Assembly (NCBI GenBank): GCA_965220085.1 | Contig: CBDCOZ010000003.1 | Location: forward strand, 1,321,683-1,385,682 | Reading direction: 5' to 3' | From: Candidatus Oxydemutatoraceae bacterium | GTDB taxonomy: Bacteria; Pseudomonadota; Gammaproteobacteria; Poriferisulfidales; Oxydemutatoraceae | Length of the DNA: 64,000 bases | Shown here: one piece after another, positions 1,057 to 62,700 of the stretch | Layout of the letters: each line of letters opens with the position of its first letter | How positions within the stretch are numbered: position 1 is the stretch's first letter | The notes under the pieces: generated by a model | Databases searched by the model: none | What the model was told of the DNA's origin: nothing | What the model saw: the letters and a program-made list of their open reading frames with translations, nothing else | Translations under genes and position numbers: made by a program

Positions 1057-1060
1057 GCCA

Positions 1061-20153: not shown

Positions 20154-20343
20154 ATAGATTCGGCGACAACGCAAAAACTGTCCCCCAAACTATCTTTCAT
20201 GGCGCGCCCCAGAAACGACCCGCAAACAATTAAGTACGGAGCCCAAGCCGAAGCATCAAGCGCCCTATTGCTCCATGCGTCCGATATGTCTTGCATCATA
20301 CGCGCCCCCCTCTCTGTCGGCGCGAACAAGATACGGCGCAGGT

Positions 20344-38700: not shown

Positions 38701-41700
38701 GTCGCATACGCGTGCTCGACAACGATGCCGTCCTGCAGCGCGCCGGTTATGCCGCCGAGTTCCTTGTCCGCCGATGCGGCGCCGGTCGTGTAAACGCGCC
38801 GCACCGCGCCGCCGCCGGTCAGCCACCCCGCCAACGGCGCGGCGCGGATCGTCCCGCCGTCCGCCGATACCGCCGAATAGACATCTTTTATCGTCGTCCC
38901 CAAGGTCTTGCCGACCAAGCCGCCGGTGTCGTGGCCCGCCGTCACCGAACCGGTGACGCCGAGATTGGAGATCGTCGCATTGCCGGTCTCGCCAAACAGC
39001 CCCTGAATATTGCCATTGCGCTCGATATGCAGGTTATAGATCGTATGCCCCCTGCCGTTGAAGATGCCGGAAAATCGTGTCGCGGGCGCGCCCAACGGCG
39101 GCCAACCTTCGCCCTCTTCGGCGCGGCTCCAGCCATGGACTCCGGCATCGCCGCCGGCATAACTCGCATCCTCGTCAAAGTCCAGATCGCGCGTCAGTTC
39201 ATAGCCGACGCAACCGGCGGGACAACCCATGTCCGCCGCCCGCGCCGGAAACGCCGCTTCGTAGTCCGGCGCGCCCGCCATCATGCCGTCGCCGTCCAAG
39301 TCGCGGCGGATCGCATCGAGTTGTTCCAGCCATGCGATCTCTATCAGGCCGTCGTCGTCGGTATCGTAATCGATCGTCGCCGCCGCCGTCGGCGAGTGGC
39401 TGCGGCTCGCCTCGCCGCCGTAGACGACGGCGGCCACGTGATAGGCCGAGGTCTCGCCGTCGCTCAAATCGGCATCGACATAACTCCGTTGCGACAGCTC
39501 CGCGGCATCGGCCAAGAGCGCGCCGCGGCGATACACCGTGTAGCGCAACGGCGGCGGCGGATTCCACGCCGACACATCCGGCGCGTCCCAAGTCAATCTG
39601 CGGTTGGTCTCGCCGGCGATGGCGAACGCCGGCGGGCCTTGCCGCAGTTGATAGCCGAACTCTTGCCATGTCGCCTCGCCGTCGCCGTTGAAATCCGTCC
39701 GCAACGCCGGGTACTCGTTCGGGCCGCCGAAGTCCCAACTCGCCGCCGACACATCCCAGTCGGCGTAGATGCCGCGGTAGGCCGTCGGCGTCTGCAACTC
39801 AGCGCTCGTGCGGCCGGTCACGCCGCTCAACGTACCGCTGCCGATGGCGTCGCTCTTGGCCGAAGTCTGGGTGTCCCAATACGCCGCTGTCGCGGCGGCG
39901 GAAGCTTCGACATGACCGCCAAAGCCGCCGCTCTCTGTCGCGCTCGGATTGATCAGACCCGTCGCATAGCCATAGCGCACCGTCACGTTGCCCAGGTTGC
40001 CAATCAAACCGCCGCCGCGATATTCGCTGCCGTCGCGCGTCGTGTTGATGTAGCCGGTCGCGTAGACATGTTCCACCGTGCCGCCCTCCAGGAAGTGGAT
40101 GTCGCGCCCGAGCACGCCGCCGCCTTGCGAGTTCGCATAGACATTGCCGGTCGCGTAACTGCGGCTGACGGTCGAAGCGCTTGAGGCATAGCCGACCAAA
40201 GAGCCGATATGCGCCCGGCCCTCCGCCGACACCGCCGACCAACTGTTCTCCAGCGTACTCTCCAAATGCTGACCGATCAGACCGGCGATATTGTTACGGT
40301 CGCCGCCGTCGATGGCGCCGGTGACGCCGATATTGCGGATACTGGCGCCGCTGACCGTGCCGAACAGACCCTGAGCTATCCGCTCGCGGTCGATATACAG
40401 GTTGTGGATCGTGTGACCGTTGCCGTCAAAGGTCGCCGTGTAACCATTGTCACCCTCGCCCTCTCTATTCTGGCCATCTCTCACGGCCGGGTCGCCGATC
40501 GGCAACCAGCCCTCTTCGTCGTCGCCATCGTCGGGGTCCAGCGTCCACACGGTGATCGCGGTCGTGTCGGCAAAGAGGTAACTCGTCAGGTCCTCAAAGT
40601 CCAGATCGCGCGTCAGTTCATAGCCGACGCAACCGGCGGGACAACCCATGTCCGCCGCCCGCGCGGGGAAAGCCGCGTCATAGGTCGGCGAATTCGCGTT
40701 CGTCGGCATGCCGTTGCCGTCCAAGTCGCCGGTCACCGCGCCGAGTTGTTCCAGATACGCGATCTCTATCAGGCCGTCGTCGTCGGTATCGTAGTCGATC
40801 TCGGGCTGCGTCCAGACGGCTCCGGCGCTGATGCGCCCGCCGCCGTGGCGCGCGATTACCGCGCCGATGTGATAGCGGTACTCGGCGCCCGCGTCGGTCT
40901 TTAGACGCTCGTCGTCGCGATAGCGCAACTCGGCGAGGTCTTCGGCCAGCAAGAAGCCGTCGCGATAGACGTTATAGCGCAGGTCGGATGCCGACAGTGC
41001 GCGCGCCGGCTCGCCGTCCCAGTGCGAGACATCGGGCGCGCTCCACGTGATCTCACGCGCGTCGATATCGCCCGCGACCGTCACGTTGGCCGGCGCGTCG
41101 CGCAACTGATAGCCAAACTCCTGCCAACTCACGATGCCGTCGTTGTTGAAGTCAATCTTGAGCGCCGGGTACTGCGCGATCGTGCCGAAGTCCCAGTCGT
41201 CGCTTGCACCCTCTTCGTTCCAGTCGGCATAGATGCTCTCATACGTCGTCGGCGCGCGCAAGATATCGCTTGCTTGCTCGCCGCTGGAGACGACCTCGTC
41301 GGCGCTGCCGTCGCCGATCAAGGGGACATCCGGCAGGACGCGCTCGCTATCGGCATAGACAGCGTTGATGTCAAAGTCGGGCGTAACACGGACCTGTCCC
41401 GCCAGACTGCCGACGCGACCGACCGGGGATTGCGCCAGCGTCGATACATAGCCATAGCGGAGTCGGATGGTCCTGGCCCCTCTGCCCACGTCCCCTATGA
41501 CACCGCCCGCGGCTGCGGGAAGATCGGTAGCGGGAACGCCCGAGAGCATCGCGCCGGTCGCGTAGACGTGCTCTATGGTCGCATCGGTTTCAGGAATGCT
41601 CGCAGTGCCGCCGGCATTGCCGGCGATGCCGCCGACATGGCCGATGCTGGCGGATACGTTGCCGCTCGCATAACTCGTTCGCACTACGCTGTCAACGTTC

Positions 41701-44700
41701 ATCAGATGAACAAGACCGCCCACAGCAAAATCATCATCATCCGCCAGTATCGTTGCGGCGGAATAAGTATTCATCAACGTGCTTCTTACCACGTCAGTAA
41801 CCACACTTGCCGAATATCGCACCGAGCCGAGAACGCCGACATTCGTCACGCTTGCGTCGCTCGCTCCGAAAATTAATGAGGCGACACTGCGCATGAACAC
41901 GGTATGACCGTTGCCATCGAAGGTCGCGGTGAGGTAGCCGTTGATGCCCGGCCACGCCGCCGCCCAGACGGGGTTGACGACGCCGCTGCCATAACTCGCC
42001 GCATCGGTGAAGTCCAGATCGCGCGTCAGTTCATAGCCGGCGCAACCGCCGGCGGGGCACATATCATCGGCCGGGAACGGGAACGCCGCGCGGTAATCGT
42101 CCGCGTTATCCGCCTCCGGTTCGCCGTCGCCGTCAACATCCCAGCGGATCGCGTCGAGTTGCTCGACCGTGGCGATCTCTATCAGGCCGTTGTCGTCGCT
42201 GTCGTAGTCAAAGCGGTCGCTCACGCGCCAGACGGCGACGCTGCGGCTTGGCTCGCCGCCCTCGATTACCGCCGCGACGGTATAGGTGTGGCGCTTATCG
42301 TCCGCAACACCCGTATCGGTATAGCGCGCAGCGCTCAGCGACTCTGCCAGCAGCGTTTCTACCCTGTCGACGACCTCCTCCTGGGTATTGGTATCAATCA
42401 CTGTCTCAATGCTTGAACGATAGACGTTGTAGGTGAGTGCCGGCGGGTCATCCCAGTGCGAAGTGTCGGGTGCGTCCCAGCGCAGTTCGCGCGCCGCGAG
42501 GTCGCCGCTCACGCGCAGGTCGCGCGGGCCTTCGCGCAGTTGCCAGCCGAATTCCTGCCAAGTGGCCGTGCCGTCGTTGTTCGTATCGACCTTCAGCGCC
42601 GGGTATTGGCTGGCGTTGCCGAAGTCCCAGTAGTCGCTGCCGTCGTCGTCCCAACTCGCATAGATACCGCTATAGCCGGTCGGCACGGCGAGCGCCAAAG
42701 TCGTCGCGCCGGCGATGCCGGTGACGGCGTGGGTGGTGTCATCGCCGAAGGCGGCGGCGATGCCGGCGGTCTCGGTATTCCAGTAGACCGCGGTCGCCGC
42801 CAGCGTGTCGAAGGCGCTTCCGATGACGGCGCCGCCGCTGTCGTCGTTGATGCGCGCGGTGGTATAGGCATAGCGCAACGTCGCGGCATCGTCAAAATAT
42901 ATGCCGATCAAACCGCCGCCGCTGTCATTAATGTTGTTATAGCCGGTCGCATAGACGTGCTCGGTCGGCGCACAGGCAGCGCCGGCGAGCGCGCCATCTC
43001 TAACAATTGAAATGGTGTCGTCCGGATGATCGCGCAAACGGCCGGTGGCATAGCTCGCGCGCAGGGCGCCGCCGGCGCTGCTACAAGCGCCGATGAGGCT
43101 GCCGCTGACCTGACCGACAGCCGCCGACACCGACGACCAACTGCCTTCCACCGTGCCGCCGGCATTCAGCTCAGCGACCAGACCGCTCCCCCATTGCTTG
43201 TCAATCAACTCGCCGGTGATGCCAACATTGCGCACGATACCGCCGTCGCCAACCTTCCCGAACAAACCAAAAGCCGAGTGACCGCTTCTGGCGTTATAGT
43301 AATTGCGCAGCGTATGACCGTTGCCGTCAAATATCGCCGTGAAACCATCGCCTGTGTCTCTTCCGATTGCCGGCCAACCTTCGCCGAGACCCGCGTTATT
43401 GAACCAAGGCGTCGCGCCGCTCTGCGCAGTCGGCACCCACATTTCGGTGGCAGTGCTGCCGATGTAATAGCTGTCGGCAGCGTTGAAATCCAGATCGCGC
43501 GTCAACTCATAGCCGGCGCAACCGCTATCGGGGCAACCCATGCCGTCAATCGCCGGGAACATAAAGACGTAAGTCGCCGCGCTCGTTTCCGGGATGCCGT
43601 CGCCGTCCAAATCAAAATCTATCGCGCGCAGTTGATCGAGGTTGCTCACTTCTATCAGGCCATCGTCGTCCAGATCAAAGTCGCGCAAGCCCGATGTCAC
43701 CGCCGGCGCGCGCGCCGCTTCGCCGCCCTCGACGACCGCCGCCACGTGATAGCGATGCGTGATCGTCGGTATCGCGCCGTTATCGGCATACGTCGTGTCG
43801 GTCAGACCGCTGCGCAACAACACCGTATCCGGCGCGTCCGGCAAGCGCGTGTGGGGATGGCGGTAGATGTTGTAAGTGACCGTCGGCGGATTGTCCCAGT
43901 GCGAGGTGTCGGGGGCGTCCCAGCGCAGTGTGCGCGACGGGCCGGTACCGCTCGCTGTCAGATTCTGCGGCGGCTCGCGCAACTGATAGCCGAACTCCTG
44001 CCAGCTCGCGATGCCGTCGTTGTTGAAATCCACCTTCAGCGCGGGGTATTGTTGCGCGGTGCCGAAGTCCCAGTAGTCGGTCGGGTTGCCATTGGCATCG
44101 TCTGCGTCCCAGTCGGCGTAGATGCCGACGTAACCCTGAGGCCCTTGTAATTCGGCGGTGGTATGGCCGCTGATATTGGTCGCCGCCGAGTTTGTATCGG
44201 CGTGACCGACCGCCGCGGTCGTGCCGCTGGCATCCGTGTCCCAATAGACGGCGGTGAATGTATCATTCACGCTATTAGAACCGATGACACCGCCGCGCTC
44301 TGTCGTCGCCGGTTCCAGAAAGGCGGTGGAATAGGCGTATTTGAGTGTGCCCTCACCAAAATAACCAAGCAGACCGCCGGCACGGCGCATATCGCCGCCG
44401 TGCGTACCGTCAACTTGACCGGTCGCATAGACGTGCTCTACCGCAGGCAGGCTGGCTATATTGTTCATCGCACCGATCAGACCGCCGGCATACTGACCCG
44501 CGCGCGCGCGACCAGTCGCATAACTCGTATATATGCCGCCGCCACCCATATCGGCGACCAGCGAACCCGCAGAAGCCGCGGCGGTTGCCGCCACTGACGA
44601 CCAGCTATTTTCTACGCGACCGCCCGCCAGACGGGTGACCACACCCGCAGCCTGATTTTCATCCACGACTTCCACCGAACCGGTGACGCCGAGGTTTTTC

Positions 44701-47700
44701 ACCGTACCGGTAACATAACCGAACAGCCCCCTGTCCGCGACAGTGTCGCGTATATATAGATTCGCGACCGTATGACCGTTGCCGTCAAAGGTTGTAGCAA
44801 AGCGGTTGCTAGCGCTGCCAATCGTAGCCCAGCCTATGGTATTCGGGTCCGAGTTGCGGCCCCAATCTTCGTCATCAACACCGTCGGCATAGCTGCTTGC
44901 ATCATCAAAATCCAAGTCGCGCATCAACTCGTAGCCGCTGCAACCCGTAGACGGGCAACCCATGCCGGTGGCGGCGGACGGGAAGGCGGCGGCGTACTCC
45001 GCTTGTCGCTCGGCGGACACATTGCTCACATCGCCGTCGCCGTTTATATCGTATCTGACCGCAGCGAGTTGCTCCAGATTGCTGATTTCTATCAGGCCGT
45101 CGTCGTCGCTATCGTAATCGCCGGCGGTTAGCGTCACAGCAGCGACACCGCTGCCGTATTCGTGACCGTCTATCAATACCGCCACGCGGTAACTGCGGCT
45201 GGCGTTGAGGTTGGCGGCGGTATCAATATACGCCGGCGTCTCAAGCCCTGTCGCTATCTGCGTGCCGTCGCGGTAGACCGCATAGCGCAATTCCGGTGCC
45301 GGCGTCCAGTGTGTCGTCACCGGCGCGTTCCATGTCAATAGATTGCCGTTTGCCAGCGTCGGCGCCAACGGATCGCGCAGTTGATAGCCGAACTCTTCCC
45401 AGCTCACCGTGCTGTCACCGTTGAAATCAACCTGCAATGCGGGGTATTGTTCGGCGGTGCCGAAGTCCCAATAGTCGGTCGCGTTACCGGCGGCATCGTT
45501 GGCATCCCAGTCGGCGTAGATGCCGCCATAGGCGGTCGGCGTCTGTAGCTCGGCGGTGGTCTTGCCGGCGACGGAGCGCAGCGTCGCGCTGCCGGCGTCG
45601 CCAAAGCCGCTCGCCGCGCCGGTCGCCTGCGTATCCCAGTACAGCGCGGTGAGATTGCCGCCGCTCGCGACATCGCCGATGAGACCGCCGGCGCTGGCAG
45701 CGGCAAGCGGGGCCGCGACATAGCCGTAGCGTACTGTCGCCGCGGCGCCCAGCGCACCGATGAGACCGCCGCCGGCGGCGGCAGCCGACACATAGCCCGC
45801 CGCGTAACTGTGCTCGATGACATCCGACGCGGCGGCGCTCGCGCCGATGAGGCCGCCGACCGCATCGGCGCCGACGACGGCGGCGACGGCATACGCCGCG
45901 CGCCATGTGACATCGTCGGCGTTGCCGACGGCGCCGCCGATCGTATCACCGCCGCGCACCGAACCGGCGACATAGACATTGTCAAGCGTCGCCTTGCTGA
46001 CAAACGCGGCGAGCAGACCGACGCCGTTGCTGCCGCGCACCGCGCCGGTGATGCCGATGTTTTTGATCTCTAGTTGTTCGCCGTTGATCTCTGCGAACAG
46101 CCCTTGGCGGTCGCTGTTCGGGCGGTTGATATAGAGGTTGCGTATCGCGCGACCGTTGCCGTCAAGGTCGCCGGCGTAGACGCCGCTCGGGTCTATCGGC
46201 GTCCAGCCTTCGCCTTCAATCCACGCCGGATCAACGCGACCGGCGGCATAGTCCGCCGGGTCGTCGAAGTTCAGATCGTTTGACAATTCGTAGCCGTCGC
46301 AACCGCCGCCGCCGCAACCCATGCCGCTCGCCGCGTTCGGGAACGCCGCGGCATACGCCGCCGCGTCGTTGCTCGCCGGTTCGCCGTTGGCGTCGAGGTC
46401 CCAGCGCATCGCGTTGAGTTGCTCCAAGTTGGCGATCTCTATCAGGCCGTCGTCGTCGCTGTCGTAATCGGTCGTCGGGTAGGCAATCGCTGCGCCGCGC
46501 GTCACTTCGCCGCCGTAAATCACCGCCGCCACGCGATAGACATTGATGCCGTTGCTCGGGGCGCTGTCGGTATAGGTCGTCGCGGTCAAACCTTCCGCCA
46601 GCAGGGTGACATCGCTCGCGGCGGCGGCGGTTGCGCGGTAGACGTTGTAAGTGATCGTCGGCGGGTCGTCCGGCCAGTGCGACGTCACGGGTACTGTCCA
46701 GCTCAATACTTTTGATGAGCCGGAATCGCTGACGCTGACCGTCGGCGCTTCGCGCAGTTGATAGCCGAACTCTTGCCAGGTGGCGCTGCCCTTGTTGTCA
46801 AAGTTTGTTTTCAGCGCCGGGTATTGGCTGGCGCTGCCGAAATCCCAGTAGTCGCTGGCGCCGCCTTCGTTCCAGTCGGCGTAGATGCCGCTATAGCCGG
46901 TCGGGGCTTGCAGTTCGGCGGCGGTCTGCCCGGCGATGCCGGCGGCGGCGCCGGCGGTCTGGTTGGACACCGCGACATCCCAATACAGCGCGGTGTAGTC
47001 GGAGTCGGGGCGTTGTTTACCGACGACACCGCCGAGAGTACCAAGACCGCCGGGGGCGATCGCGACCAGCGCGGTCGCATAACCGTAGCGCAGGGTATTG
47101 CGCTCGCCGTAGTCTTGATGACCGACCTGGCCAATCAGACCGCCGGCGTCACCGGCCTCCTCCAAATAACCGCTGGCATAGACATGTTGTACCGTCGCCC
47201 CGCCCCGGATCATCCCGAGCAAACCGCCGACCCGTGAGTCGGTCGTTGCGGTGCCAAGCGCGTTACCGGTCGCATAGCTCGTCGCAAGCGAAGCGTTCGT
47301 CACTCTGCCAATCAAACTGCCGGATATAGAGTCGGAGTCCGCCGTCACCGCCGACCACAGATTGCGCGCGGTAGCACCGTCCGCTACCTCGCCGGCCACC
47401 CCTCCCGTTACATTAGCAAGACTTTCGGCATCGCCGGTGATGCCGAGATTGGAGATTGCGGCAGCGGCACCGGTAACGGCGCCGAACAGACCGATTTCCA
47501 GCGGGGAGGATACGATTAGAATAAGGTTTTTAATCGTATGACCGTTGCCGTCAAAGACCGCGCGGAAGCCGTCGTTGTCGGGCAGCGTACCGCCGATTGG
47601 AAGCCACCCGTCTGCACCCACTGCGGATGTCCACTGCGTATTGACACTGCCGCTGGCATAGCTTGCGGCGGCGGTAAAGTCCAAGTCGTTCATCAACTCA

Positions 47701-50700
47701 TAGCCGCGGCAACCGTCGGCGGGACAACCCATGCCCGATGTGGCGGCGGGGAAAGCGGCGGCGTACGCCGTTATATACGACGGCTCCTCGCCGCCGAGGT
47801 TGCTGTCCACCGCGCCGATGCCGTAGGGGTCGTAGCGGATGGCATTCAGTTGTTCCAGTGTCGTAATCTCTATCAGGCCGTCGTCATCGGTATCGTAGTC
47901 GGTGCCCGAGACCACGACATCCCGGTATACCTCGCCACTGTCCACCCGCACCGAGACGTGATAGATATAGGCGGCAGCGGCAACGGTGGAAGGCAGTACG
48001 TCGGTGTAACTTGTCGTCGTCAGGCCCTCGGCCAGCAGGCTGATCTCGGCGCCGGTCGATGCCATGCGGTAGATGTCATAGGTCACGGGCGGTTGCGGCG
48101 ACCAGTGCGAGACGTCAGGCGCGCCCCAACTCAGCGTGTGATCGTTGCCGGCGCCGGCAACGATCGCGACATCGGCCGGGGGGACGCGCAACTGATAACC
48201 GAATTCTTGCCACGTGGCGCCGCCGATGCCGTTGAAGTCGACTTTCAGCGCCGGGTATTGATTCGCCGTGCCGAAGTCCCAGTAGTCGCCGCCATGGTTC
48301 CAGTCGGCGTAGATGCCGGCGTAGCCGGTCGGCGCTTGCAACGCGGCGCTGGTCAGGCCGCTCGCGCCGGCGGTCGTCTCATCGCCGCCGATGCCTTTGT
48401 TGCGACCGGTCGTCTCGGTGTCCCAGTAGACGTCGGCGAGAGCGACATGGGCGGCGGTGATCGGGCCGATGACGCCGCCGCTGTCGGCGACGCCGATGAC
48501 GACTTCGCCGAGACCGTAGGCGTAGCGCAACGTCGCGAAATGTTCCGTCGTCGTCACGCCCGCAGGCAGGCGGGCAAAGCCGACGAGCGAACCGGCGAAC
48601 ATGCCGGCGTCGCCGAGCGCGCCGGCGACGCCGGTCGCATCGACGCGGCCGGTCGCATAGACGCGCTCCAAGACGCCGTCGCCGTCCTTGATGTCGATCT
48701 GACCGACCAGACCGCCGGCGCGGCTGTTGGCAAATACGCTGCCGCTGGCATAACTGGCGCGGATGCGCCCGCCGCTGTCGATATCGCCGACCAAACCGCC
48801 GACCGCAATGCCGGCGCGGAGCGACACCGCCGCCCAACTGTTCTCAATCACGGCATCCTCGCCGCCCATCTGGGTCGCGATGCCGCCGCTCCTGCCGGTC
48901 GCCGCGATCGAGCCGGTGACGCCGAGGTTGCGCACTATCGCGCCGGGGTCCAGGCCGCCAAACAGCGCCTGATCGGCGTTGGCGGCGTCGGCGGCGGGAT
49001 TGTTGATGTAGAGGTTCTTGATCACATGACCGTTGCCTTCAAAGGTCGTTCTCAGATCGCCCGGAGCCGGCCAACCGGCGCCGGTCGTCCACGTCGTCTT
49101 GGAACTGGCATCGGCGTAGTCGGCATCGTCGTCAAAGTCCAGATCGCGCGTCAGTTCGTAGCCGCGACACTGCGCGTACGGGCAGCCCATGCCGGGGGCG
49201 GCGGCGGGAAAAGCGGCGGCATATTGCGCCGCGTCCCGCGCCAGCGGCGCGCCTTCGCCGTTAAAATCCCAGCGCACGGCGTGGAGTTGTTGCAATGTCG
49301 CGATCTCTATCAGGCCGTCGTCGTCGCTGTCATAATCGTTGCCCGATTGCGCCGCGCTGCGATGCGCTTCGCCGCTGTCTATGCGCACGGCGACCTCGTA
49401 GACGTAACCGCTGTCGGCGGCGGCGGTGTTATCGGTATAACTCGTCGCCGTGTAATCTTCGGCCAGCAGGCTGACTTGGGTGCCGGTGGGTCTCTCGGTT
49501 ATGCGGTAGACATCATAAGCGACCGGCGGCGGCGGCGACCAGTGCGAGACATCGGGCGCGCCCCAGCTCAGCGTCCGCTCGTTGCCGGCGCCGGCGACCG
49601 TGACATCGGCCGGGGCGGCGCGCAGTTGATAGCCGAATTCCTGCCAACTCGGATCCGTATCGGGGTCACCGTCAAAATCAACCTTCAAGGCAGGGTACTG
49701 TGCCGCGGTGCCGAAATCCCAGTAGTCGCTGGCGCCGCCCTCGTCCCAGTCGGCGTAGATGCCGGCATAACCGTCGGGCGCTTGCAGCGCGGCGGTCGGC
49801 AGGCCGATGATGGCGGGCGCGGGCGCGGTAGCGGCGCCGTTCTCGCGACCGGTGGTCTCGCGATCCCAGTACAGCGCCGCCAATGCGCGCGCGACGGGGA
49901 GTCTTGCGATCAGGCCGGCGGCATCGCGTATCGGCACGACCTCGCCGCGCCCGTAGGCATAGCGCAGGGTCAGCTTGCCGGTGTCAGAACCGCTGTCCGT
50001 GGCCGCGCCGCCGATCAGCGAGGCGGCGTAGCGCTTGGCATCGCCGCGGCTGCCGTCGACGCGACCGCTGGCATAGACGTGCCGCAACGTACTGTCGCCG
50101 CTTGAGAAGTCGCCGGAGCCGGCCAAGCCGCCGGCGAGGCGACTGCCGACGACGCTGCCGCTGGCATAACTCGCGCGGATCTGCGCTTGCGAGAACCTGC
50201 CGACCAGCGAGCCGCCGCCGGTCACGCTGCGCGTGACGACCGCCGACCAGCTGTTCTCCAGCATGCTGTCGGTCAGCGCGCCGATCAGACCGGCGACGGT
50301 CAGCGCGCCCGTCACCGAGCCGGTGATGCCGATGTTGCGGATTGTCGCGCCCTGCGTTTGATAGAACAGCGCCTGATATTCGTTGCCGGCGGCGGCGGAA
50401 AGATTATTGATCCAGAGGTTTTTGATCACACGGCCGTTGCCGTCAAAGATCGCCGCGTACGGGGCATCGGCGCCGCCGATTGGCGTCCAGCCGACGCCGC
50501 CCGTCCACAGGTCGTTGACGGCGCCGGTGACATAACTCTGCGCATCGTCAAAGTCCAAGTCGCGCGTCAATTCGTAGCCGACGCAGCCGGCGGGACAGCC
50601 CATGCCGCTCACCGCCGCCGGGAACGCTTGGGCGTAACTCGGCGAACTCGCGTTCGCCGGCGCGCCGTCGCCGTCGAGGTCCCAGCGCATCGCGTTGAGT

Positions 50701-53700
50701 TGTTCCAGCGTCGCGATGTCTATCAGGCCGTCGTCATCGGCATCGTAGTCTTCCATCCCCGACCGGACGACGCTGCGGCTCGCCTCGCCGCCGTAGACGA
50801 CCGCGGCGACGCGGTATTCGTAGATTGCATCCGCGCTCGCGCCGCTGTCGCGGTAGGTCGTCGCCGTCACGCCGCGGGCGACGACGGCCTCCCGCAAGTC
50901 GGGGCACACCGGTTTGCAATTCCCTTCGCTGTCCTGCGCGCCGTTCGGGCACGGCGCGGCGCAGAGGCGCAACGCGACGGAATAGGCCTCGCCGGCGGCG
51001 CATGCGGTGGCGCCGTTGTTTGAGCATACGCTCTTGCCCGAGTGGACCCCGCTGGGGATGTGTCCGTGGTTGCCATATATGCCGCACGTCGCCGCCGCGG
51101 AGCGGCAACGACCGTTGCTGAGAATAATATCCCCGTTGTGACTTTCGCACCAGTCGCGGAATTCGAGATCGGCGGCATTGACGCAGGTCGTCGTTCCTTC
51201 TATCGCCGCTTGGCCTGGCGGGCAGGAATGCGGGGCCGGCGCGCAGACGCCGCCGATGGCGGTCTGTGTGCTGGCACAGGCGACACAGGCGCTGCCTTGC
51301 AAGACCTCGTTGTCGCCGCAGAGCATGGAGACGCATGAACCGTCGCTGATGTCTTCGGGCGTCGCGTCGGTTTCGAGCCAGCGGTAGATGTCGTAGGCGA
51401 GCGGCGGCGGGTCGTCCCAGTGCGATGTGACCGGCGCGTTCCAGCGCAATTCGCGCGCGCCGCCGCGACCGCTGACCGTCAGATCGCGCGGGCCTTCGCG
51501 CAGTTGATAGCCGAACTCTTGCCAGGTCGCGATGCTGTCGCCGTCAAAGTCGGCCTTGAGCGCCGGGTATTGCGAAGCGTCGCCGAAATCCCAGTCGTCG
51601 CTGGTGTCGTTGTCGTCCCAGTCGGCGTAGATGCCGCCATAGCCGGTCGGGGCTTGCAGTTCGGCGGTCGTCTTGCCGGCGACACCCGAGGCGGTTCCGG
51701 CGCCGGCGGCGTTGTCGCGGCCCGATGCGCCGGTATCCCAATAGAACGCGGTTCTTCCCAGCGCGTTGGCGTAGCGCCCGGCGTAACCGCCGCTGAGCGG
51801 CGCCGCCGGGTCGATGCGCGCGACGGAATAACCGTACTCGCTGCCGTCGTCCGCCGCATCGGAGCCGACCAGACCGCCGGCCCAGCGCTGCGATGCGCTG
51901 ACGTAACCGGTCGCGTAGACGCTGTCCAGAAACGTGACCACCAAGCCGAGTTTGCCGACGAGTCCGCCGACCGCTTCGCGCCCGCCGACATTGCCGGTCG
52001 CATAACTGCGGTAAAATGCGGCGCTGCCGGCGGCCGCTTCGCCGGCGAGCGCGCCGACATTGGCGGCGGCGCCGCCGATGCTGACCGCCGACCAGGCCTC
52101 GCTGATGAAGCCGCCGTTTGACACTTCTCCGACCAAGCCGCCGACCGCCTGCGCGGTGCTGGCGGCGACCGTGATGGCGCCGCTGATGCCGAGGCGGTAC
52201 AGGCTCCTGTCGTTGTCTGTTACCCTGAGGCGACCGAACAGGCCCTGATGCGATGCGCCGCGGTTGATGCGGAGGTTGGCGATGACGCGACCGTTGCCGT
52301 TGAATTCGCCGCTGTAACTCGCGTCGCCGCCGCCGATCGGCTGCCAGCCTTCGCCGCTGGTCCACGCCGCTTTGTTGGCGATATCGGCGTAGTCGGCATC
52401 GTCGGCAAAATCCAGATCGCGCATCAATTCGTAGCCTTTGCAAGCAACCGCGCAACCCATCGGATGCGCGGCGACGGCGGCGCCGGGGAAGGCCGCCATA
52501 TAACTCGGCGTGCTCGCCTCCGCTATGCCGTCGCCGTTCAGGTCATAACGGATCGCGTGCAGTTGTTCCAGCGTCGCGATGTCTATCAAACCGTCGTTGT
52601 CGGTATCGTAATCGGTCAGCGATGCGGCGACCTCCGATATCGGGTAACCGCCCTCGACGACGGCATGCACTTGATAGGCATAGGTCCTGTTGGCAACGAC
52701 AGCATTGTCGATATAGTCCGTTTTTGTCCGATTCGCCGCTATCTGCGCGCCATCGCGCCGGATATCATAGGTCACGGACGGGCGCGCGGCGGGCGGCCAG
52801 TGACTCAGGTCGGGCGCTGTCCAGACCAGCATGCGCGACGCGCCGCTGCCGCTAATCGTCAGGTTCAGGCTCTCGCGCAACTGCCAGCCGAACTCCTGCC
52901 AACTCGCGATGCCGTCGCCGTTGAAGTCTGTTTGCAACGCCGGGTATTGGTCGGCGTCGCCGAAATCCCAGTAGTCGCTTGTGCCGCCTTCGTTCCAGTC
53001 GGCGTAGATGCCGCCGTAGCCGGTCGGGGCTTGCAGTTCGGCGGTAGCATGACCGGCGGCGCCAGCGGAGGACCCGGCGCGCACGCCGCGGCGCACTGTC
53101 GAGGTCTCGGTATCCCATAACAGCGCGGTCGCTGTCACGCGGTCGCCGACAGCGCCGATGACGCCGGCCAGAAGGTGTTTTCTCGCGCTCGCGGGGGATA
53201 GCATAGTCGTGGAATAGCCGTAGGCCAAGCGCGCGCCGCTCGCGGCGCCGATGAGGCCGCCAATATTCACAGGGAAGCTTTCGAGTGTTGTCATGAAATC
53301 GACAAAACCGGTCGCATAGCTGTGTTCGACGCGCACCGCCGCATCGGAGTCTATGGCGCCGATCAAACCGCCGCCGAATTCGTCGGCATACACTGCGCCG
53401 GTCGCGTAACTCCTGCGGATCGTCGCGGCGCCCATCGCTTTGCCGATCAGGCCGCCGGCGTCCCTGAAACTGCGTATGTGCGCCGCCGACCAGGCATCGC
53501 TGACGACGCCGCCGTTCATCGCGCCGATCAAACCGCCCGGCGTAGATGCCGCGCTCTGAACCGTGCCTATTCGCCCGGTCACGCCGACGGCGCGTATCGT
53601 CGCCCCGTCGGTGGCGCCGAACAGGCCTTGCGGGCGCGCGAGAGCAATTCCCGTGTAAAGGTTTCTGATGACGTAACCGTTGCCGTCAAAGACCGCCGCG

Positions 53701-56700
53701 TACGGGGCTTCGGCGCCGCCGCCAATCGATATCCAGCCCGTGTCGGCGGTGAACAGCGCCTTGTTCGTGAGCGTGCCGTCCAAGCGCACAGAGTCATGAT
53801 GGTAGTAGCTGTCGTTGTCGTTGAAGTCCAGATCGCGCGTCAACTCGTAACCGATGCAGGTCTGATTCGGACAGCCCAGCCAGGGGGAAGCGAAATAGAA
53901 ATCGTAATCCTCGCCGGCGTTGGCGCTGTCGGGCCTGCCGTCGCCGTCGGGGTCAAAGCGCAACATCGAGAGTTGCTCCAGGTTGCTGATCTCGATCAGG
54001 CCGTCGTCATCCAAATCATAATCGGCGGCGCCGGAGAAAGGATAGGCGCGGGTCACTTCGCCGCCGGCCACCGCCGCCGCTATGCGGTAACCGTAACTGC
54101 GATACAGATTGGCATCGGTATCCGTATAAGACGATGCGGTCAGGCCCTGCGCGTCGTCGATCGCGCTGACCGTGGTGCCGCGGTAGAGGTTGTAGGTCAG
54201 CGTCGGCGGGTTGTCCCAGTGCGATGTGACCGGCGGTTTCCAACTCAGCGTGATGCCGTCGGTGTCGGAGACGACGGCGACATCGCGCGGGCCTTCGCGC
54301 AACTGGTAGCCGAATTCCTGCCAACTGACGACGCCGTCGTTGTTGAAATCGACCTTCAGCGCCGGGTATTGGCGGTTGCTGCCGAAGTCCCAGTAGTCGG
54401 TCGGGGCGCCGGCGGCATCGTTGGCGTCCCAGTCGGCGTAGATGCCGTCGTAGCCGGTCGGGGTTTGCAGTTCGGCCGTGGACTTGCCGACAATGACGGC
54501 GGACGAACCGGAGACGGCGTGACCGACGCCTTTTGCCAGTTGGCTCGTATGGCTGTCCCAGTAAACGGCGGCGAAGGGATTGGCGGCGCGGTTTTCGCCG
54601 ATGACGCCGCCGATCTCGGTCGCGTTGCGATTGACCAGGGCCGTGGAATAGGCATAGCGCAACGCGCCGACGGTATGAAAGGAGCCGACGAGACCGCCGC
54701 CGCGGCGCGCATCACCGCCCGCCGTCGGGTCGACAAAACCGGTCGCATAGACGTGCTCTATCGTCACGTTGCTGCCCAAGTCATCCGTGAAGCCGACCAG
54801 ACCGCCGAGGAGTTGGTTGCCGCGCACCGTGCCGGTGGCGTAACTCGCGCGCACCGTGCCGTCTCCTATCTGACCGATCAACGAGGCGGCGTTCTGGGGA
54901 GCGCTTGCCGCGACCGACGACCAGGCGTTCTCAACCAGCCCCGCGTTTGCCAAATGCGTCGCCAGACCGGCGACCTGACCGCTGCTGCTGCTGCCGGCGA
55001 CCGCGCCGGTGATGCCGACATTTCTGATCGCGCCGCCGCTGACATAGCCGAACAGACTGGGGCCCGAGTCGGTTCTGTCGATATAAAGGTTGGCTATCGT
55101 ATGACCGTTGCCGTCAAACGTCGCGGCGAAGGCGTTCGTTGTGTTGGCTCCGATTCGCGCCCAACCCTTCGTCGCCGCATCCGTGACCCTGCTCCACTTG
55201 GCATCGTCTGTGCCGTCGGCGTAGCTGCCGCGGTCGTCAAAATCCAGATCGCGCATCAACTCGTAGCCGGCGCAAGCGCTCGGGCAACCCATGCCGGCGG
55301 TCGCCGCGGGGAAGGCCGCGGCATAGGCCGCCGCGCCCGCGGGCGCATCCGCTGCGCCGCTGCCGTCCAAGTCCCAGCGTATCGCGTTCAGTTGCTCCAG
55401 CCAGTTGATGTCTATCAGGCCGTCGTCGTCGCTGTCGTAATCGACCGCGCCCGATGCCGCCGAACTGCGGTAGGCTTCGCCGCCGTCGAGCAACACCGCG
55501 ACGCGGTAGGTGTATTCGGTGCCGGTGGTCGCGGTAGTGTCGGCATATGTCGTCGCGCTCAGGTCTCTGGCGATCACCAGGTTGGATGTGGTATGGCGGT
55601 AGACCGTGTAGGTGACGACTGGCGGCGGCGACGACCAGTGCGAGACATCGGGCGCGCCCCAATGCAGCGCGCGCGAGGGACCGAGACCGCCGGCGACGCT
55701 GACCGCCCTCGGATAGTCGCGCAACTGGTAGCCGAATTCTTGCCACGTCGCGATGTTGTCGCCGTCAAAGTCGACCTTGAGCGCCGGATATTGCGAGGCG
55801 CTGCCGAAGTCCCAGTTGTCGGTCGCATTGCCGGCGGCGTCGGCGGCGTCCCAGGTTGAGTAGATGCCGGCGTAGTCAGTCGGCGCTTGCAATTCGGCCG
55901 CGGGCAAGCCGGCGGCGCCGGCGCGTCCGTCGTCGGCGACGATACCGGTGGTATCGGTATCCCAATACAAGGCGCTCAGGACGATGTCGCCCTCCGAGTT
56001 ATGGACGATGGCGCCGTGGTCGCTGGCGCCGGTCGCATAGCCGTAAGCGATCGACACGCCATAATCCTGATAGTCGTTGATGTTGGCTATCAACGAGGCC
56101 GCATTGGGGCCGCTTACGGGACCGCTCGCATAGACGTGTTCGATGACGGCGGCGGCGCCGCTGATACTGCCGATCAAGCCGCCGCCGCCGCTTTGGTTGT
56201 CGGATATGTCGACGGCGCCGGTCGCATAACTGCGGCGAATGACCGCCTCTTGAATCGTGCCGTCGGTGTTCCTGATTTGGCCGATCAGACCGCCGACCGC
56301 ATCGGCGCCTTCGACCGCCACCGCCGCATAGCTGTTCTCGATGCGGCTGTTTTCTTCCAGCACCGAGGCCAGACCGCCGATGATCCTGCCTGATTTTGCG
56401 ACCGCGCCGGTGACGCCGATGTTGGTCAGCGTGGCATCTCCGTCCAAGCCGCCAAACAGACCGCTGGCGTCGGCGCCGGCGGAGTAGAGGTTGCGCACCG
56501 TGCGACCGTTGCCGTGAAATAGCAAGTCTTCGTTGTCCTCCTCGACCAGCAGTTGCCGCCAGCCTTTGCCGCTCGTCCACGTCGCTTTGTTGGCGGCGGG
56601 GTCGCGGTAACTGGCATCGTCGTCGAAGTCCAGATCGCGCATCAGTTCGTAGCCGCGACAGCCGCGCGGGCAACCGGCGCCGGCGGCCGGGTAGGCCGCG

Positions 56701-59700
56701 AGGTGCAACAGCCGGGCGGCTTCGTATATATCGAGCAGGCCGGCGTCGATGATGCCGTCGTAATTCTGGTCGGCGCGGGTGGCCGCGAGTTGTTCCAGGT
56801 TGCGGATCTCTATCAGGCCGTCGTCGTCGGTGTCGTAATCGATGCCCGATACCACGGCGCTGCGGTAGGCCTCGCCGCCGTCGAGCAACACCGCGACCAG
56901 ATAGTTGCGGGCGCTGCCGGCGACCGCGGTATGGTCGGTATACGTCGTCGCGCTCAGGTCTTCGGCAACGACGCGGGTGGCGGTGGCGGCGCGGCGGTAG
57001 ACGTTATACGTGACGACCGGCGGCGGCGACCAGTGCGAGACATCGGGCGCGCCCCAACTCAGCGCGCGCGAGGCGCCGACACCGGCGACGACGGCGACCG
57101 GCGCCGGGTAGTTACGCAGTTGATAGCCGAATTCTTGCCAAGTCGCGATGTTGTCGCCGTTGAAATCAACCTTCAGCGCCGGGTATTGTTGCGCGCTGCC
57201 GAAATCCCAGTAGTCGGTCGCGTTGCCGTCGGCATCGGCGGCATCCCAGTCGGCATAGAGACCTTTGTAGCCGATCGGCGCTTGCAGCTCGGCGGCGGTG
57301 TGGCCGCGCAGATGCTGGGTCGGGGCATCGCCGGCGTTGGCGGCGTTGTTGCGCGCAGTCGTCTGCCGGTCCCAGTAAGCGGCGGCGATGACGGGGTTTG
57401 TGTCAGTGCGCGAGTTGTAGCCGGCCAAACCGCCGCTGTTGACGTATTGCGCGACGTTGGCGGTCACGCGACCGGCAGCGTAGGCGTAGGCGATCGTGAC
57501 GCCGCCTCTCATCTCGCCAATGAGACCGCCGGCGCGGGTCGGCGCTGTGACGCGTCCGCTGGCATAGGCGTGTTCGAGCGTCGCATCGTTATTTTCAAAC
57601 AGGCCGATCAATCCGCCGGCAACCCGATCGTCGGCGCGCACCGCGGCGGTGGCATAACCGGCGACCACCCTGCCGTCGGACACTTTGCCGACCAGTCCGC
57701 CGACCGCTGCGCCGCCGTGTACGTCCGTCGCCGCATAGCTGTTCTCAAGCGTCGCGGCATCGACGACGCCCGCCAGAGCGCCGACCGCGCCGCCCTTGGA
57801 GGCTGCGACATTGTCGGCCAAAATGACGCGCACCGAACCGGTCACGCCGACATTGGCGATCGTCGCATCGAACACCGTGCCGAACAGGCCCATGTCGCCG
57901 TGACCGCGCAGGCCCTCGCGAGCGATGCGCAGGTTGGCTATCGCGCGACCGTTGCCGTGAAATGTCGCCCGATACGGATAGTTGGCATTGCCGAGCGGAT
58001 CCCACATCCCGTCCGTCCAAGCGGCTTGGTTGGCGGTGTCGGCGTAGTCGGCGGCGGCGTCAAAGTCCAGGTCTTTGCTCAACTCGTAGCCGCGACAGGC
58101 GCGGTTCGGGCAGCCCATGTCGCTGGCGCGGACGGGGAACGCCGTTTCGTAGTCGGCGGCGCGCGCGGGGAAGTCGATGCCGGCATCGTTCGGGTCGCCG
58201 TTGCCGTTGAGGTCTATGCCTATCGCCGCCAGTTGTTCCAGGTTGCGAATGTCTATCAGGCCGTCGTCGTCGCTGTCGTAGTCGACGCGGGTGATCATGA
58301 CCGCGTTGCTGCGCGCCGCCTCGCCGCCGCCGGAAGCGACGAACGCCGCCACGCGGTATTCGTTGTCGCCGCCGGTCGAGCTCGCCGCGGTGTCGTGCGT
58401 CGTCGCGCTCAGCGCGGAGGCGGCGGGCGCCGCCTCATCGTTGAGCCAGACCCGATAGCGCAGTTGCGGCGGATTGTCCCAGTGCGAGGTATCCGGCGCC
58501 GTCCAACTGAGGATGCCGGCGCTCTCGGTCAGCTCGATGTCGTCGCGCAACTGGTAGCCGAATTCTTGCCAACTCACGTTGCCGTTGCCGTTAAAATCAA
58601 CCTTCAGCGCCGGGTATTGCGAGGCGGCGCCGAAATCCCAGTGGTCGTTGTTGGCGGAACCGGGCATCCCCCAGGCGGCGTAGATGCCAAGATATTGGGT
58701 CTGCGTTTGCAAGGCGGCGGTCGTCTGACCGCCGATGTTGACGGAAGAGCCGACGCCGACCGCTTCGCTCTTGCCCGAAGTCACGGTGTCCCAATATGTG
58801 TGCTCGACGGCGCTGTCCGCCCTGTCGCCGCCGACGCCGCCGCTGTTCGTCGCCGCTTTGGCGATCAGGCCGGTCACGTAGGCATACCGCAGTTGCGCTT
58901 GCCCCATAAAGCCGATGAGACCGCCGGCGACGCCGCCGTCGCCGCTCGCGCGCGATGCGCTGACAAAGCCGGTGGCGTAGACGTGTTCTGCCGCGCTGTC
59001 GGCGTTGTCGGCAGCGGCGCCAATCAGGCCGCCGACTTGGGCGACGCCAGTCGCGGCGCCGTTGGCATAACTCCGCCGTATCGTGCCGGCGTTGTTAAAC
59101 CCGACCAGCGAGCCGACCATCTCGCCGCCCGATACCGTCGCCCCCGAGAAAGAGTTTTCTATCGTGGCGCCGTTCAGTTCGCCGGCGATGCCGCCGATGC
59201 GGTCGTTGTCGTCGCCGCCCGAGACCGAACCGCTGACGACGGCGAGGTTTGTAATGATGCCGGCGCTGCCGACGACGCCGAACAGACCTTGGCCGTCGTT
59301 GTTATCCGCCGCGCGGTTGATATGCAAGTTGCTAATCTTTTTGCCCTTGCCGTCGAAGGTCGTTGCGAACGGAGCCGCGCCGTCGCCTATCGGCGACCAG
59401 CCTTCGCCGCTCGTCCATTCCGCATTGACCGCGCCCGAGCGGTAGTCGGCGGCGTCTTTAAAGTCCAGGTCTTGGCGCAATTCGTAGCCGACACAGGCGT
59501 TGTTTAAGCAACCCATGTGCGGCGCCGGATTGAAAAAACCCGACTCATACGCGCTCTGATCAGCCGCCGCGACGGCGCCGTCGCCGTTCAAGTCATAACG
59601 CATCGCGTTCAATTGATCCAGCGTTCTGATGTCTATCAGACCGTCGTCGTCGTCGTCGTAATCGGTCTCCGTCGCCTCCGCCGTCGGCGAGTGGCTGCGG

Positions 59701-62700
59701 CTCGCCTCGCCGCCATTGACGATCGCCGCGACTTGATAGGCATATGTGGTCCCGGCGACCGCGCTGGCATCGACATGGGCGCGCAACGACAACTCCGCGG
59801 CGCCCGCCAAGGCCAAGCCGTCGCGATACACCGCGTAGCGCAATTCCGGCGGCGGGTCCCACGCCGATACGTCCGGCGCGTCCCAACTCAAACTGCGGTC
59901 GCTCGTTCCGCCGATGGCGAACGCCGGCGGCCCTTGCCGCAACTGATAACCGAACTCTTGCCAGGTCGCTTCGCCGTTGCCGTCAAAATCAACCTTCAGC
60001 GCCGGGTATTGCTCGCTCGTGCCGAAGTCCCAGTGGTCGTCGCCGCCGGCATCCCAGCTGGCGTAGATGCCGTCATAGCCGGTCGGCGTTTGCAACGCGG
60101 ATGTCGTGTGGCCGGTCACGCTGCTCAATGTGCCGCTGCCGATGCCGGCGCTCTTGCCCGAGGTCTGGGTGTCCCAATACGCCGCCGTCGCCATGGGGGA
60201 AGTTTCAACACGACCGCCGAAGCCGCCGCTGTCTGTCGCGCTCGGGTTAATCAGACCCGTCGCATAGCCGTAGCGCACCGTCACGTTGCCCAGATTGCCG
60301 ATCAAACCGCCGCCGCGATATCGGCTGCCGCCTCGCGTCGTGTCGATGTAGCCGGTCGCGTAGACATGCTCGACCGTGCCGCGCGTCTGGTGGTGGTTGT
60401 CGCGTCCGAGCGCGCCGCCGGCTTGCGAATTCGCGTAGACATTGCCGGTCGCATAACTGCGGCGGATTTTGGAGTCGTTGGAGGCGATGCCGACCAAAGA
60501 GCCGACATGCGCCCGGCCCGCCGCCGACACCGCCGACCAGCTGTTCTCCAGCGTGCTGTTTACATGCCGACCGACCAGTCCGCCGATATCATTGCCTATG
60601 CTGTCGTTGCCTGTGCCGCCGTCGATGGCGCCGGTCACGCCGATGTTGCGGATGGCGCCGCCGACGACGATGCCGAACAGACCCTGATACCGCCGCGCGC
60701 GATCGATGTACAGGTTGTAAATCACGCGGCCGTTGCCGTCAAAAGTCGCCGTGTAAGCGTTCGAATCGTCGCCATCTCTCACGCCCGGATCGCCGAGCGG
60801 CAACCAGCCTTCTTCGACATCGCTGTCGGCGGGGTTGTCTGTCCAAGGTTGGGCGAAGGGGTCGCCGCCGGCATAGCTCGCCGCATCGTTAAAGTCCAGA
60901 TCGCGCGTCAGTTCGTAGCCTGCGCAACCGCCCGCCGGGCAACCCATGCCGGCGGAGGCATCCGGAAAGGCGTCGGCGTATTCGCTCGCATTGGCCAATG
61001 CCGGCTCGCCGTCGCCGTCCAAGTCCCAGCGGATGGCGTTGAGTTGCTCCAGATATTCGATTTCTATCAGGCCGTTGTCATCGGCGTCGTAATCGGCGGC
61101 GACCGCGACGACGCTGTGCAAGGCCTCGCCGCCATTGACGATCACGGTCAGGCGGTAGATGTCGCCGCCGTCGCTATCGACATAGGAGCAGGTCGTGACG
61201 CCGTTGGCGTCTGTGGTCTCGGCGATGGCGCCGCTCAGCTCCGTCGTGTCGCGATAGACTTTGTAGCCGACGGTCGGCGGGTTTGTCCACGCCGATAAGT
61301 CCGGCGCGCTCCAGTTCAAGGTTCTGGCGGAGCCGTTGCTGTTGACCGTCACATTGCGCGGGCCGTCGCGCAACTGGTAGCCGAATTCCTGCCAACTCGC
61401 GGCGCTGTTGGGGTCGTTGTCGAAATCTATCTTCAGGACGGGATATTGCGAGATGGCGCCGAAGTCCCAGTGGTCGGTCGTGTCGCCATCGTCCCAGTCG
61501 GCGTAGATGCCGTCGTAGCCGGTCGGCGCGCGCAGCTCGCCCGTCGTCCGCGCCGTGATGCCGCCGACGGTCGCGCCGCTGACCAAACCGATGGCGTTCG
61601 TTTTGCCCGATACCATGCGGTCCCAGTACGCCGCCGTCGCCGCGTAAGCGCTGTTGTCAAGATGCCCGCCCAGACCGCCGGCGGCTGTCGCGGCGGAATC
61701 TATCAGCGCCGCCGCATAGGCGTACTTCAATCGCGCTTGCCCCATGGAGCCGATGAGACCGCCGGCTGCGCTGCCGTCGCTGGCGATGCGCGATGCGGTG
61801 ACAAAGCCGGTCGCGTAGACGTGCTCCGCCGCGGTGTTCGCGGTGTTCGCGACGGCGCCGATGAGACCGCCGACTTCGTGACTGCCGCCGACCGCGCCGG
61901 TGGCATAACTTCTGATAATCTTGGCGCCTCCTCCGTCCGACGATCCGTTCAGGAAGCCGACCAGACTGCCGACCCGGGAATGACCGTTTGCTGTTACCGT
62001 CGAATAGACGTCCTCTATCTTGCTGTTGAAGGTCTGGCCAATCAGGCCGCCGGCGGCCGTGTTTCCAAAACCGTTCGCGGTCACCGACCCGGTCACGCCG
62101 ACGCCGGTAATATAGCCTCCGCCGTAGAACCCGAATAAGCCCAAGTTATCGCGGTCGCGATTAATATGCAGGTTGCTGACCGTATGGCCGTTGCCGGCGA
62201 AATGACCGCGATAGGACGCGCCTTGTTCGCCGATTGGTTCCCAGCCTTCGCCGCTCGTCCATTCCGCATTGACCACGCCGCTCCTGTAACTGCCGGGGTC
62301 GTTGAAGTCCAGATCGCGCATCAACTCGTAGCCCACGCATTGCCCCGAAACGTCGCCGACGCTGGCGACGCATGATGATAGATTGGGATGACATTGACTC
62401 CCAACCTGAAGGACAATGGCGGGATCCGAATTTGACCGGGGGAAGGCAACATCGTGGCCCGTATCAGAAGGGCCATGACCGTTGGCATCCAAATCCCACC
62501 GCAATGCGTTCAGTTGCTCCAACCACCAGATTTCGACCAAGCAGTCGTTATCGGTATCAAAGACATCCTGTGTCTGCGGCGGGGCGGTTTGCGCCGACAC
62601 GATGCCCGACAGCGCGAGCGAGAACACGCAACAGAAAAGCAACGATCCGAAGTGGACCGATAACGGTTTCGCTTTGTTTGTAAACTCCGACAAGTTTTGA

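Follow-up and report, generated by a model that had tools for sequence, protein, structure and literature searches.

A cysteine-rich cassette nested in an FN3-like domain of a giant bacterial protein, and its rare relatives in giant ankyrin-repeat proteins

The second fibronectin type III (FN3) domain of the insulin receptor, FnIII-2, carries an insert domain of more than 100 residues in the loop between strands C and C', and its two half-domains still form a normal sandwich. That eukaryotic insert, largely disordered, contains a furin site together with the alpha-CT helix. Here, we describe an FN3-like domain with a nested insert in a Candidatus Oxydemutatoraceae bacterium (assembly GCA_965220085.1, contig CBDCOZ010000003.1, positions 1,321,683 to 1,385,682; the 64,000 nucleotides of this stretch are referred to as the window). 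Most of the window is filled by two giant minus-strand open reading frames (ORFs), 1523-19597 (6,024 amino acids (aa), giant protein 1) and 23013-62723 (13,236 aa, giant protein 2). We are confident of the anatomical and evolutionary core of the finding, namely that giant protein 2 contains a folded, conserved Cys-rich cassette nested in an FN3 domain and that the same cassette heads giant ankyrin proteins.

The 39.7-kb minus-strand ORF of giant protein 2 (23013..62723; residue i is encoded from window position 62723-3(i-1) downward) comprises about 27 modules of ~470 aa. Each module combines an EF-hand/dockerin-like DYDxDDDGLIEI motif, an MGCxxxC pair, GLUG-type repeats and an FN3-like domain, which starts with WQEFGYQLR and closes the module. 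Judged by the spacing of the motifs, module 7 (50751..52613, minus strand, aa 3371-3991) is 621 aa long, compared to ~470 aa in the other modules. An alignment of the 33 FN3-like segments of both giant proteins revealed a block of ~160 aa in module 7 only, located between YDIYR (strand C) and AVVARGVTATTYRD. The cassette delimited in this way (50886..51380, minus strand, aa 3782-3946) spans exactly 165 codons with 16 Cys and includes an acidic N-terminal linker of ~15 aa, WLETDATPEDISDGS. It is bordered by the N-terminal half of the FN3-like domain (51381..51524, minus strand, aa 3734-3781; strands A, B and C, ending ...LAYDIYR) and by the C-terminal half (50754..50885, minus strand, aa 3947-3990; strands C', E, F and G). 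An earlier sequence-only reading of this DNA had proposed a Cys-rich block spliced into an FN3 loop; our analysis agrees and places it in the C-C' loop of module 7.

As it stands, the interrupted FN3 segment of module 7 showed no Pfam match. After in silico excision of the insert, weak matches to fn3 (E 0.047; 14.4 bits, cut-off 25) and RGI_lyase (E 0.052) were obtained, both of which span the junction. Among the 33 sister segments, 27 matched PF18370, the FN3-like beta-sheet domain of RGI lyase (best E 4.4e-8), and five matched PF00041 (fn3). The sister matches, together with those regained on excision, therefore identify the host domain as a genuine FN3 fold that is split in its C-C' loop. 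The cassette and the FN3 domain were modelled in two separate AlphaFold2 (AF2) predictions, since MAFFT drew the C-terminal FN3 halves into the cassette in joint alignments, including those with split half-domains. In the model, the host domain displays the seven-strand sandwich of the FN3 fold (A, B, E / C, C', F, G) and can be superposed on known FnIII domains, and its C-terminal half was predicted with strands at model positions 212-219, 223-226, 235-243 and 246-254 at a predicted local distance difference test score (pLDDT) of 93-96.

Smaller length differences occur in other FN3 loops of giant protein 2. The C-C' loop is longer by ~14 aa (TNTQEEVVDRVETLL) in the module ending at aa 6839 and by ~5 aa in the one ending at aa 6348 (window ~42200-42600 and ~43700-44000), and the modules ending at aa 7310 and 10071 have an 8-aa B-C loop insertion, ARALSASD, in common. 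Based on these C-C' and B-C insertions, FN3 loops of this type tolerate length variation.

With respect to the cysteines, a dense stretch of about 16 had been reported, and we counted exactly 16, the first at aa 3797 and the last at aa 3940 (codons spanning window 50904-51335), corresponding to 9.7% of the insert. They are located at aa 3797, 3802, 3813, 3816, 3827, 3834, 3847, 3859, 3873, 3880, 3900, 3908, 3921, 3925, 3936 and 3940, and the peptides quoted in that report (SCVSMLCG, CVACAS, CAPAPHSCPPG and CPNGAQDSEGNCKPVCPD) were all reproduced on translating the stretch. The rest of the protein (~13,070 residues) contains 68 Cys, a background of 0.52%, most of which belong to the MGCxxxC pair recurring every ~470 aa. 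The description of the other modules as nearly Cys-free apart from an MGCP...C pair is essentially right; the N-terminal 130 aa, with six Cys, and C-terminal modules with some FGCQ...HC pairs are the exceptions. As the binomial probability of at least 16 Cys in 150 aa is ~2e-16, set against ~88 such windows, we consider the cluster real and not a chance accumulation.

The cassette itself can be divided into three parts. At its N-terminal side, two Cys beta-hairpin repeats (51222..51335, minus strand, aa 3797-3834; CVSMLCGDNEVLQGSACVAC and ASTQTAIGGVCAPAPHSC) were predicted with strands at model positions 25-28/31-34 and 39-42/45-48; their equivalents in homologues are CVSEC-x8-10 repeats. The conserved core of ~90 aa (50961..51224, minus strand, aa 3834-3921) contains eight conserved Cys and the motifs CPxGQxAIxGTTTCV, LEFxDWC (a helix), CxNxGxTAC and YSxxxHxC. 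It is followed by a C-terminal Cys hairpin (50904..50963, minus strand, aa 3921-3940; CAAPCPNGAQDSEGNCKPVC; model strands 149-151/154-156), whose pattern CPxGxxxxxGxCVxxC is kept in a second alignment of homologues (A2). The core is thus flanked by short C-x2-4-C-x8-10 repeats. In an alignment of 15 copies (A1), C16, E23, C28, C49, C69, C77 and C90 are invariant, C3, F24, W27, C42 and Y83 are near-invariant, and no loss of any Cys pair was seen among the homologues. The AF2 model of the cassette, based on a 15-row alignment, reached a mean pLDDT of 79.9 and a predicted template modelling score (pTM) of 0.64, with the core at 82-95. Its predicted topology is mostly beta and consists of three beta-hairpins, a 12-residue helix (AADLEFRDWCES), five short strands and the last hairpin. 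The N-terminal ~15 residues were modelled with low confidence, which fits a flexible tether.

Next, we searched for relatives of the cassette. When 1.84 billion cluster representatives were scanned in full with HMMER, seven were obtained (E 1.2e-29 to 4.2e-8, 38-45% identity), all of them unnamed ENA or Logan metagenome predictions. Neither the insert alone nor the core alignment gave a match in word-indexed searches, which reflects the sensitivity of the index rather than absence, as the full scan did find relatives. Local searches with hidden Markov models (HMMs) detected many copies in these relatives and their paralogues, yielding about ten carrier proteins in all (P0001-P0007, P0010, P0012 and P0015), which are unnamed and mostly giant ankyrin-repeat proteins. 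One to four copies of the domain are found per carrier. The carriers have the core in common at 30-53% identity, with all eight Cys and the LEFxDWC, NxGxTAC and YSxxxHxC motifs, and in five of them (P0002, P0003, P0005, P0006 and P0007) the first copy lies directly behind a signal-peptide-like N-terminus. Cassette residues 10-164, which run from where the N-terminal linker ends to the final C[PS]DLR, have a colinear counterpart in P0001 (residues 2615-2767), indicating that the cassette moved as a block. We define this group from P0001-P0007 and the window copy as the 'LEFxDWC' Cys-rich domain family (a ~90-aa core with eight conserved Cys, GTTxCV, LEFxDWC, CxNxGxTAC and YSxxxHxC) which, judged from these sequences, is previously undescribed. 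The window copy scored E 4e-27 against the core HMM, shows every conserved family position and is a member.

Within the window, the core HMM found this one copy in giant protein 2 and none in the second giant protein, in agreement with the 33-segment alignment, where only module 7 carries the block. The insertion is therefore the sole one of its kind in the window, as had been stated. In nature it is not unique and belongs to a rare conserved family with about ten carriers. A search with the motif [ASF]DLEF[RH]DW gave 47 matches in GTDB species genomes and 52 in JGI metagenomes, none of which was confirmed by tblastn, and alignment A2 proved too variable for a search pattern. P0001, P0002, P0003 and P0005 derive from four different contigs of ENA ERZ25072196 with 7x to 27x coverage. 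P0007 stems from Logan run ERR14375726, two accession numbers from run ERR14375724, which matches the window; the carrier loci have ~63% GC, like the window. A common origin of the window and the carriers, in a single study and a single community, thus appears likely.

Some features of the carrier loci deserve mention in their own right. On three contigs of ENA ERZ25072196 (L003, L036 and L037), the cassette-bearing ankyrin giants stand in arrays of two or three adjacent paralogues of 2,000-4,100 aa each, and in L036 a second ankyrin paralogue likewise begins with the Cys-rich core. In P0001 (L001, 10001-20719), the last ~300 residues are Arg/Pro-rich and of low complexity (RRGPRRPNRP...), and the locus contains a longer ORF (8990-20719, 3,909 aa) than the called gene; the tail looks like out-of-frame read-through or an assembly frameshift.

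The modules that host the cassette have a much wider distribution. Scanning 185,579 GTDB species genomes with an FN3/dockerin profile, we obtained 32 loci with at most 47% identity in metagenome-assembled genomes (MAGs) of Acidobacteriota, Binatia, Latescibacterota, Chloroflexota/Dehalococcoidia, Acidimicrobiia and Gammaproteobacteria. The occurrence of this GLUG/FN3/dockerin-like module in at least six phyla suggests horizontal spread among host-associated bacteria. Among these MAG loci are the bins SB0661 and SB0662; according to published reports, bins with the SB066x prefix stem from the sponge Ircinia ramosa or represent sponge-associated Poribacteria (PMC11706023, PMC7883664), and ANK, cadherin and fn3 have been reported as domain classes enriched in sponge symbionts (PMC11706023). 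Given the sponge relatives and the adjacent run accessions, the window organism is probably host-associated.

A protein search with an ordinary module resulted in 290 homologues at E <= 1e-5, mostly single-module GLUG proteins (PF07581), with identities of up to 53%. Most of the best 120 carry a precomputed PF07581 annotation and some carry PF00041 or PF00028; among the module homologues at E 1e-96 to 1e-44, nearly all have PF07581. We found neither an insert of more than 17 aa nor the core in the 90 FN3 matches from 72 proteins among these best 120 of 290. Likewise, the 32 MAG loci contained no Cys-rich core and no nested FN3 insert, their longer modules being due to an Ig-like domain appended after FN3. 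Retention of the insert had been put forward as a check for orthologues; among the relatives found here, none of the 32 MAG loci or the listed module homologues carries the cassette. Such nesting occurs in just one of ~150 related FN3 domains, and members of the Cys-rich domain family are extremely few. The appended Ig-like domains (...ATITVTATD..., one or more per locus) were noted in L008, L011, L015, L016, L020, L021, L023 and L025, which belong to MAGs of Acidobacteriota, Binatia, Gammaproteobacteria and others.

As the best explanation, we propose with moderate confidence a nested, disulfide-braced cassette from a rare family that was shuffled in and most likely serves as a rigid binding knob. 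The cassette would fold on its own as an extracellular domain, having entered the C-C' loop of the module 7 FN3 in a single block, and would have been borrowed by domain shuffling from a giant ankyrin-repeat protein family. Shuffling is suggested by the unrelated ankyrin architecture of the carriers. The host would be a giant secreted, rod-like surface protein of the GLUG/FN3/cadherin type, from which the flexible acidic linker of ~15 residues could let the cassette protrude sideways, leaving the FN3 sandwich undisturbed. In the core, the helix (LEFRDWC) is predicted to pack on the beta strands, eight disulfides could provide rigidity and resistance to proteases and shear, and a ligand from the host or the matrix might bind to the surface of the cassette. 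The tip position and the tandem amplification in the ankyrin proteins favour an interaction role; for ligand binding as such, read from sequence features, we would put the chances slightly short of even. The sequence-only reading had seen the insert as the possible business end of the protein. Its position does not support this in giant protein 2, where the insert would point sideways from the stalk in mid-chain, at 29% of the length, but in the ankyrin homologues the domain does occupy the mature N-terminal tip.

Several points weigh against this explanation. The cassette sits at 29% of the chain length in one of ~27 modules, and such a mid-chain position could also be that of a neutral passenger. 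The insert itself was absent from a collection of 15 billion proteins, and the giant protein has no true orthologue in the searched collections, the best module identity being ~50%. Independent assembly evidence covers window positions 1-6260, away from the insert junctions (~51380/51381 and ~50885/50886), and the environment of the window organism is deduced from adjacent run accessions and relatives only. Finally, the alignment behind the cassette model is shallow, with 15 copies from eight proteins; therefore, the new fold that the model suggests is provisional.

The strongest competing view assigns the cassette a structural or self-associating role, as a homophilic or cross-linking knob that bundles neighbouring giant fibres or builds a matrix, or regards it as a tolerated passenger that has no specific partner. 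We consider this unlikely. It would agree with the single mid-chain copy, with small insertions tolerated by the same loop in other modules, and with conserved non-Cys residues (E23, F24, W27, Y83) that look core-packing and reveal no obvious binding site. However, five homologues present the domain at the mature N-terminal tip in up to four repeats, a typical position of interaction heads, and the fact that every Cys is kept while identity is down to 30-50% points to a fold under selection. A bolder form of the binding-knob explanation, in which a new disulfide-rich fold is a host-recognition 'warhead' exchanged as a block among GLUG/FN3 adhesins and ankyrin effectors of one animal host, probably a sponge, seems doubtful to us; if true, the cassette would be a host-specific, community-private interaction domain.

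It had been left open whether the insert is disulfide-knotted or metal-binding. The evidence points to the former, and eight disulfides very probably hold the cassette together: the cysteines are even in number (16) and conserved, with a single CxxC and neither CC nor CxC, and their short spacers measure 2, 3 or 4 residues depending on the homologous cassette. Conservation does not extend to the His residues, and the host has the features of a secreted protein (a signal-peptide-like N-terminus, FN3, cadherin and EF-hand/dockerin-like Ca motifs), in line with the extracellular location assumed above. A metal-chelating cluster of the zinc-ribbon, metallothionein or Fe-S-like type would account for the high Cys density and for the three His in the window copy (GNHGHIPSGVH), and one homologue gave a Fer4_6 hit at E 0.2, a non-significant value within Pfam noise. 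Nevertheless, such a role is improbable, since homologues have PFTYAGFTPGGVNAGK at the position of the His residues, no zinc-ribbon or ferredoxin family was matched in Pfam, and the paired CxxC/CxxH knuckles of fixed spacing that characterize zinc ribbons are not kept among the homologues.

It is highly improbable that the insert is an assembly chimera, i.e. a piece of another gene spliced into a repeat-rich giant gene. The giant gene is indeed highly repetitive, a known cause of misassembly, cassette-bearing genes occur in what is apparently the same study, and the independent Logan and ENA protein sets that were searched do not contain the insert. Against this, the insert comprises whole codons, in frame and stop-free, inside a 39.7-kb ORF; both breakpoints fall into one FN3 loop, and the two complementary half-domains refold in the prediction with pLDDT 93-96. 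At 38-45% identity to any sampled copy, the cassette is not a piece of a known neighbour. In GC content (0.663) and GC content at third codon positions (GC3, 0.794), the insert matches the host gene (0.657 and 0.790, respectively), and its base composition does not depart from the surroundings by more than the gene varies elsewhere. Furthermore, window positions 1-6260, which carry the C-terminus of giant protein 1, Pterin_4a and an M23 peptidase, are 100% identical to the Logan short-read contig ERR14375724_181073 (L002); this part of the window was therefore reproduced independently, and the window organism was present in run ERR14375724. The idea of a mobile protein-level element (intein, bacterial intein-like (BIL) or Hint domain) or of a remnant of an inserted gene, for which a discrete in-frame insertion confined to one of many paralogous modules might speak, deserves hardly any credence, as neither Pfam nor NCBIfam HMMs of Hint, intein or nuclease families matched, no nucleophile/HN junction pattern and no noteworthy flanking direct or inverted DNA repeats, terminal repeats or target duplications were found at the insert, and its homologues are ordinary tandem domains of other proteins.

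If the binding-knob explanation holds, the cassette represents a new extracellular domain family without detectable sequence or fold relatives, confined so far to a few giant proteins that appear to belong to one microbial community. It would further imply that a foreign domain placed inside an FN3 loop can give giant bacterial surface proteins new function and that the same cassette serves adhesin-like and ankyrin-type proteins. For ankyrin-type proteins, a part in the interaction between symbionts and their sponge hosts is widely suspected. The finding alone settles no long-standing question; as the cassette is small and easy to express, it provides a practical handle on what these giant proteins bind.

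Besides the cassette, the giant proteins show further features. The N-terminus of giant protein 2 is signal-peptide-like, as judged by eye from the sequence, and its N-terminal region has a weak match to GLUG (PF07581; E 0.0014, 19.4 bits, cut-off 20.5), while module 7 gave none against Pfam GLUG. The C-terminal ~500 aa (window 23013-24500) are unlike the repeating modules and contain a cadherin domain (Pfam E 5.5e-9) and a weak CarboxypepD_reg-like match; the protein ends with ...GIRIRLRVFLEGPLR, a possible signal for sorting or anchoring. Module starts, defined by the D.D.D.DGLIEI motif, are 446-491 aa apart, except for double-length spacings of 898-1085 aa at aa 9161-10071 and 10071-11156 of giant protein 2 (window ~32500-35300 and ~29250-32500) and at aa 2786-3684 and 4134-5032 of giant protein 1. 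In these gaps, the DYDxDDDGLI motif is degenerate (e.g. DYDVDDDNLIEV) and no module is lost.

The FN3-like segments of both giants showed perfect covariation, FG[YW]Q always occurring with ...SHW and FGCQ with ...[STAD]HC. FGCQ segments end at aa 501, 1419, 3684, 4134 and 5032 of giant protein 1 and at aa 12095 of giant protein 2. An aromatic pair appears to have been swapped for a Cys pair in these segments, and the latter is probably a disulfide linking the pre-A segment to the B-C loop. Long plus-strand ORFs of up to 1,208 aa (e.g. 33861-37487) run antisense to the giant gene at 23013-62723 and are probably not genes but the usual by-product of high GC content and repetitive coding sequence.

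Comparing these proteins to known families, the host modules most likely belong with the GLUG plus FN3/RGI_lyase-type (PF18370, PF00041) surface proteins that occur in uncultured bacteria, sponge-symbiont MAGs among them. These GLUG/FN3 relatives have no Cys-rich cassette and no nested insert of more than 17 aa, whereas the window protein is far larger, with ~27 modules, and carries both. In the ankyrin carriers, the core is the same, and P0001 also has the whole cassette layout. Unlike the window copy, their domain is free-standing, often in tandem, and usually located at the mature N-terminus, followed by the ankyrin repeats; it is never nested in FN3.

Among described disulfide-rich modules, no counterpart of the cassette was found. 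Pfam and NCBIfam searches with the insert and module 7 as well as Pfam searches with 15 cassette copies gave no significant match, and a PDB sequence search with the insert had no match at E <= 10. The cassette contains no CxC, CC or CCC motif and no TNFR pattern. EGF, TB and anaphylatoxin domains, whose Cys spacing had been proposed as a lead, are excluded by the missing CxC, CC and CCC motifs together with the missing Pfam matches. For EGF-like domains, which have six Cys with a CxC motif, PROSITE-type patterns and EGF Pfam matches at E <= 1 were likewise not found in the window copy, and one homologue reached a non-significant cEGF score (E 0.053). TB domains have eight Cys with a CCC triplet, and the cassette contains neither CC nor CCC; anaphylatoxin domains are all-helical and have six Cys with two CC pairs, while the model is mostly beta with a single helix. 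The Foldseek list of the cassette model was dominated by TNFR, Eph-receptor, furin-like and CaSR cysteine-rich domains, none of them significant, and TNFR, furin-like and Ephrin-receptor-like repeats were also rejected at the HMM level. As far as its sequence can tell, the cassette fits no described family and is a disulfide-rich module nested in FN3.

The likeness to known systems is accordingly of a general kind. EGF-like, TB and anaphylatoxin domains are likewise small extracellular disulfide-rich modules, with Cys signatures that differ from the cassette, and the TNFR, Eph-receptor, furin-like and CaSR domains resemble its CxxxC-x8-10 hairpin repeats generically, in the hairpins only. For the nesting, the closest analogy is FnIII-2 of the insulin receptor, which also accommodates a large insert of more than 100 residues between strands C and C'. 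The cassette has no sequence relation to that insert and differs from it in being bacterial and forming a folded domain with 16 Cys.

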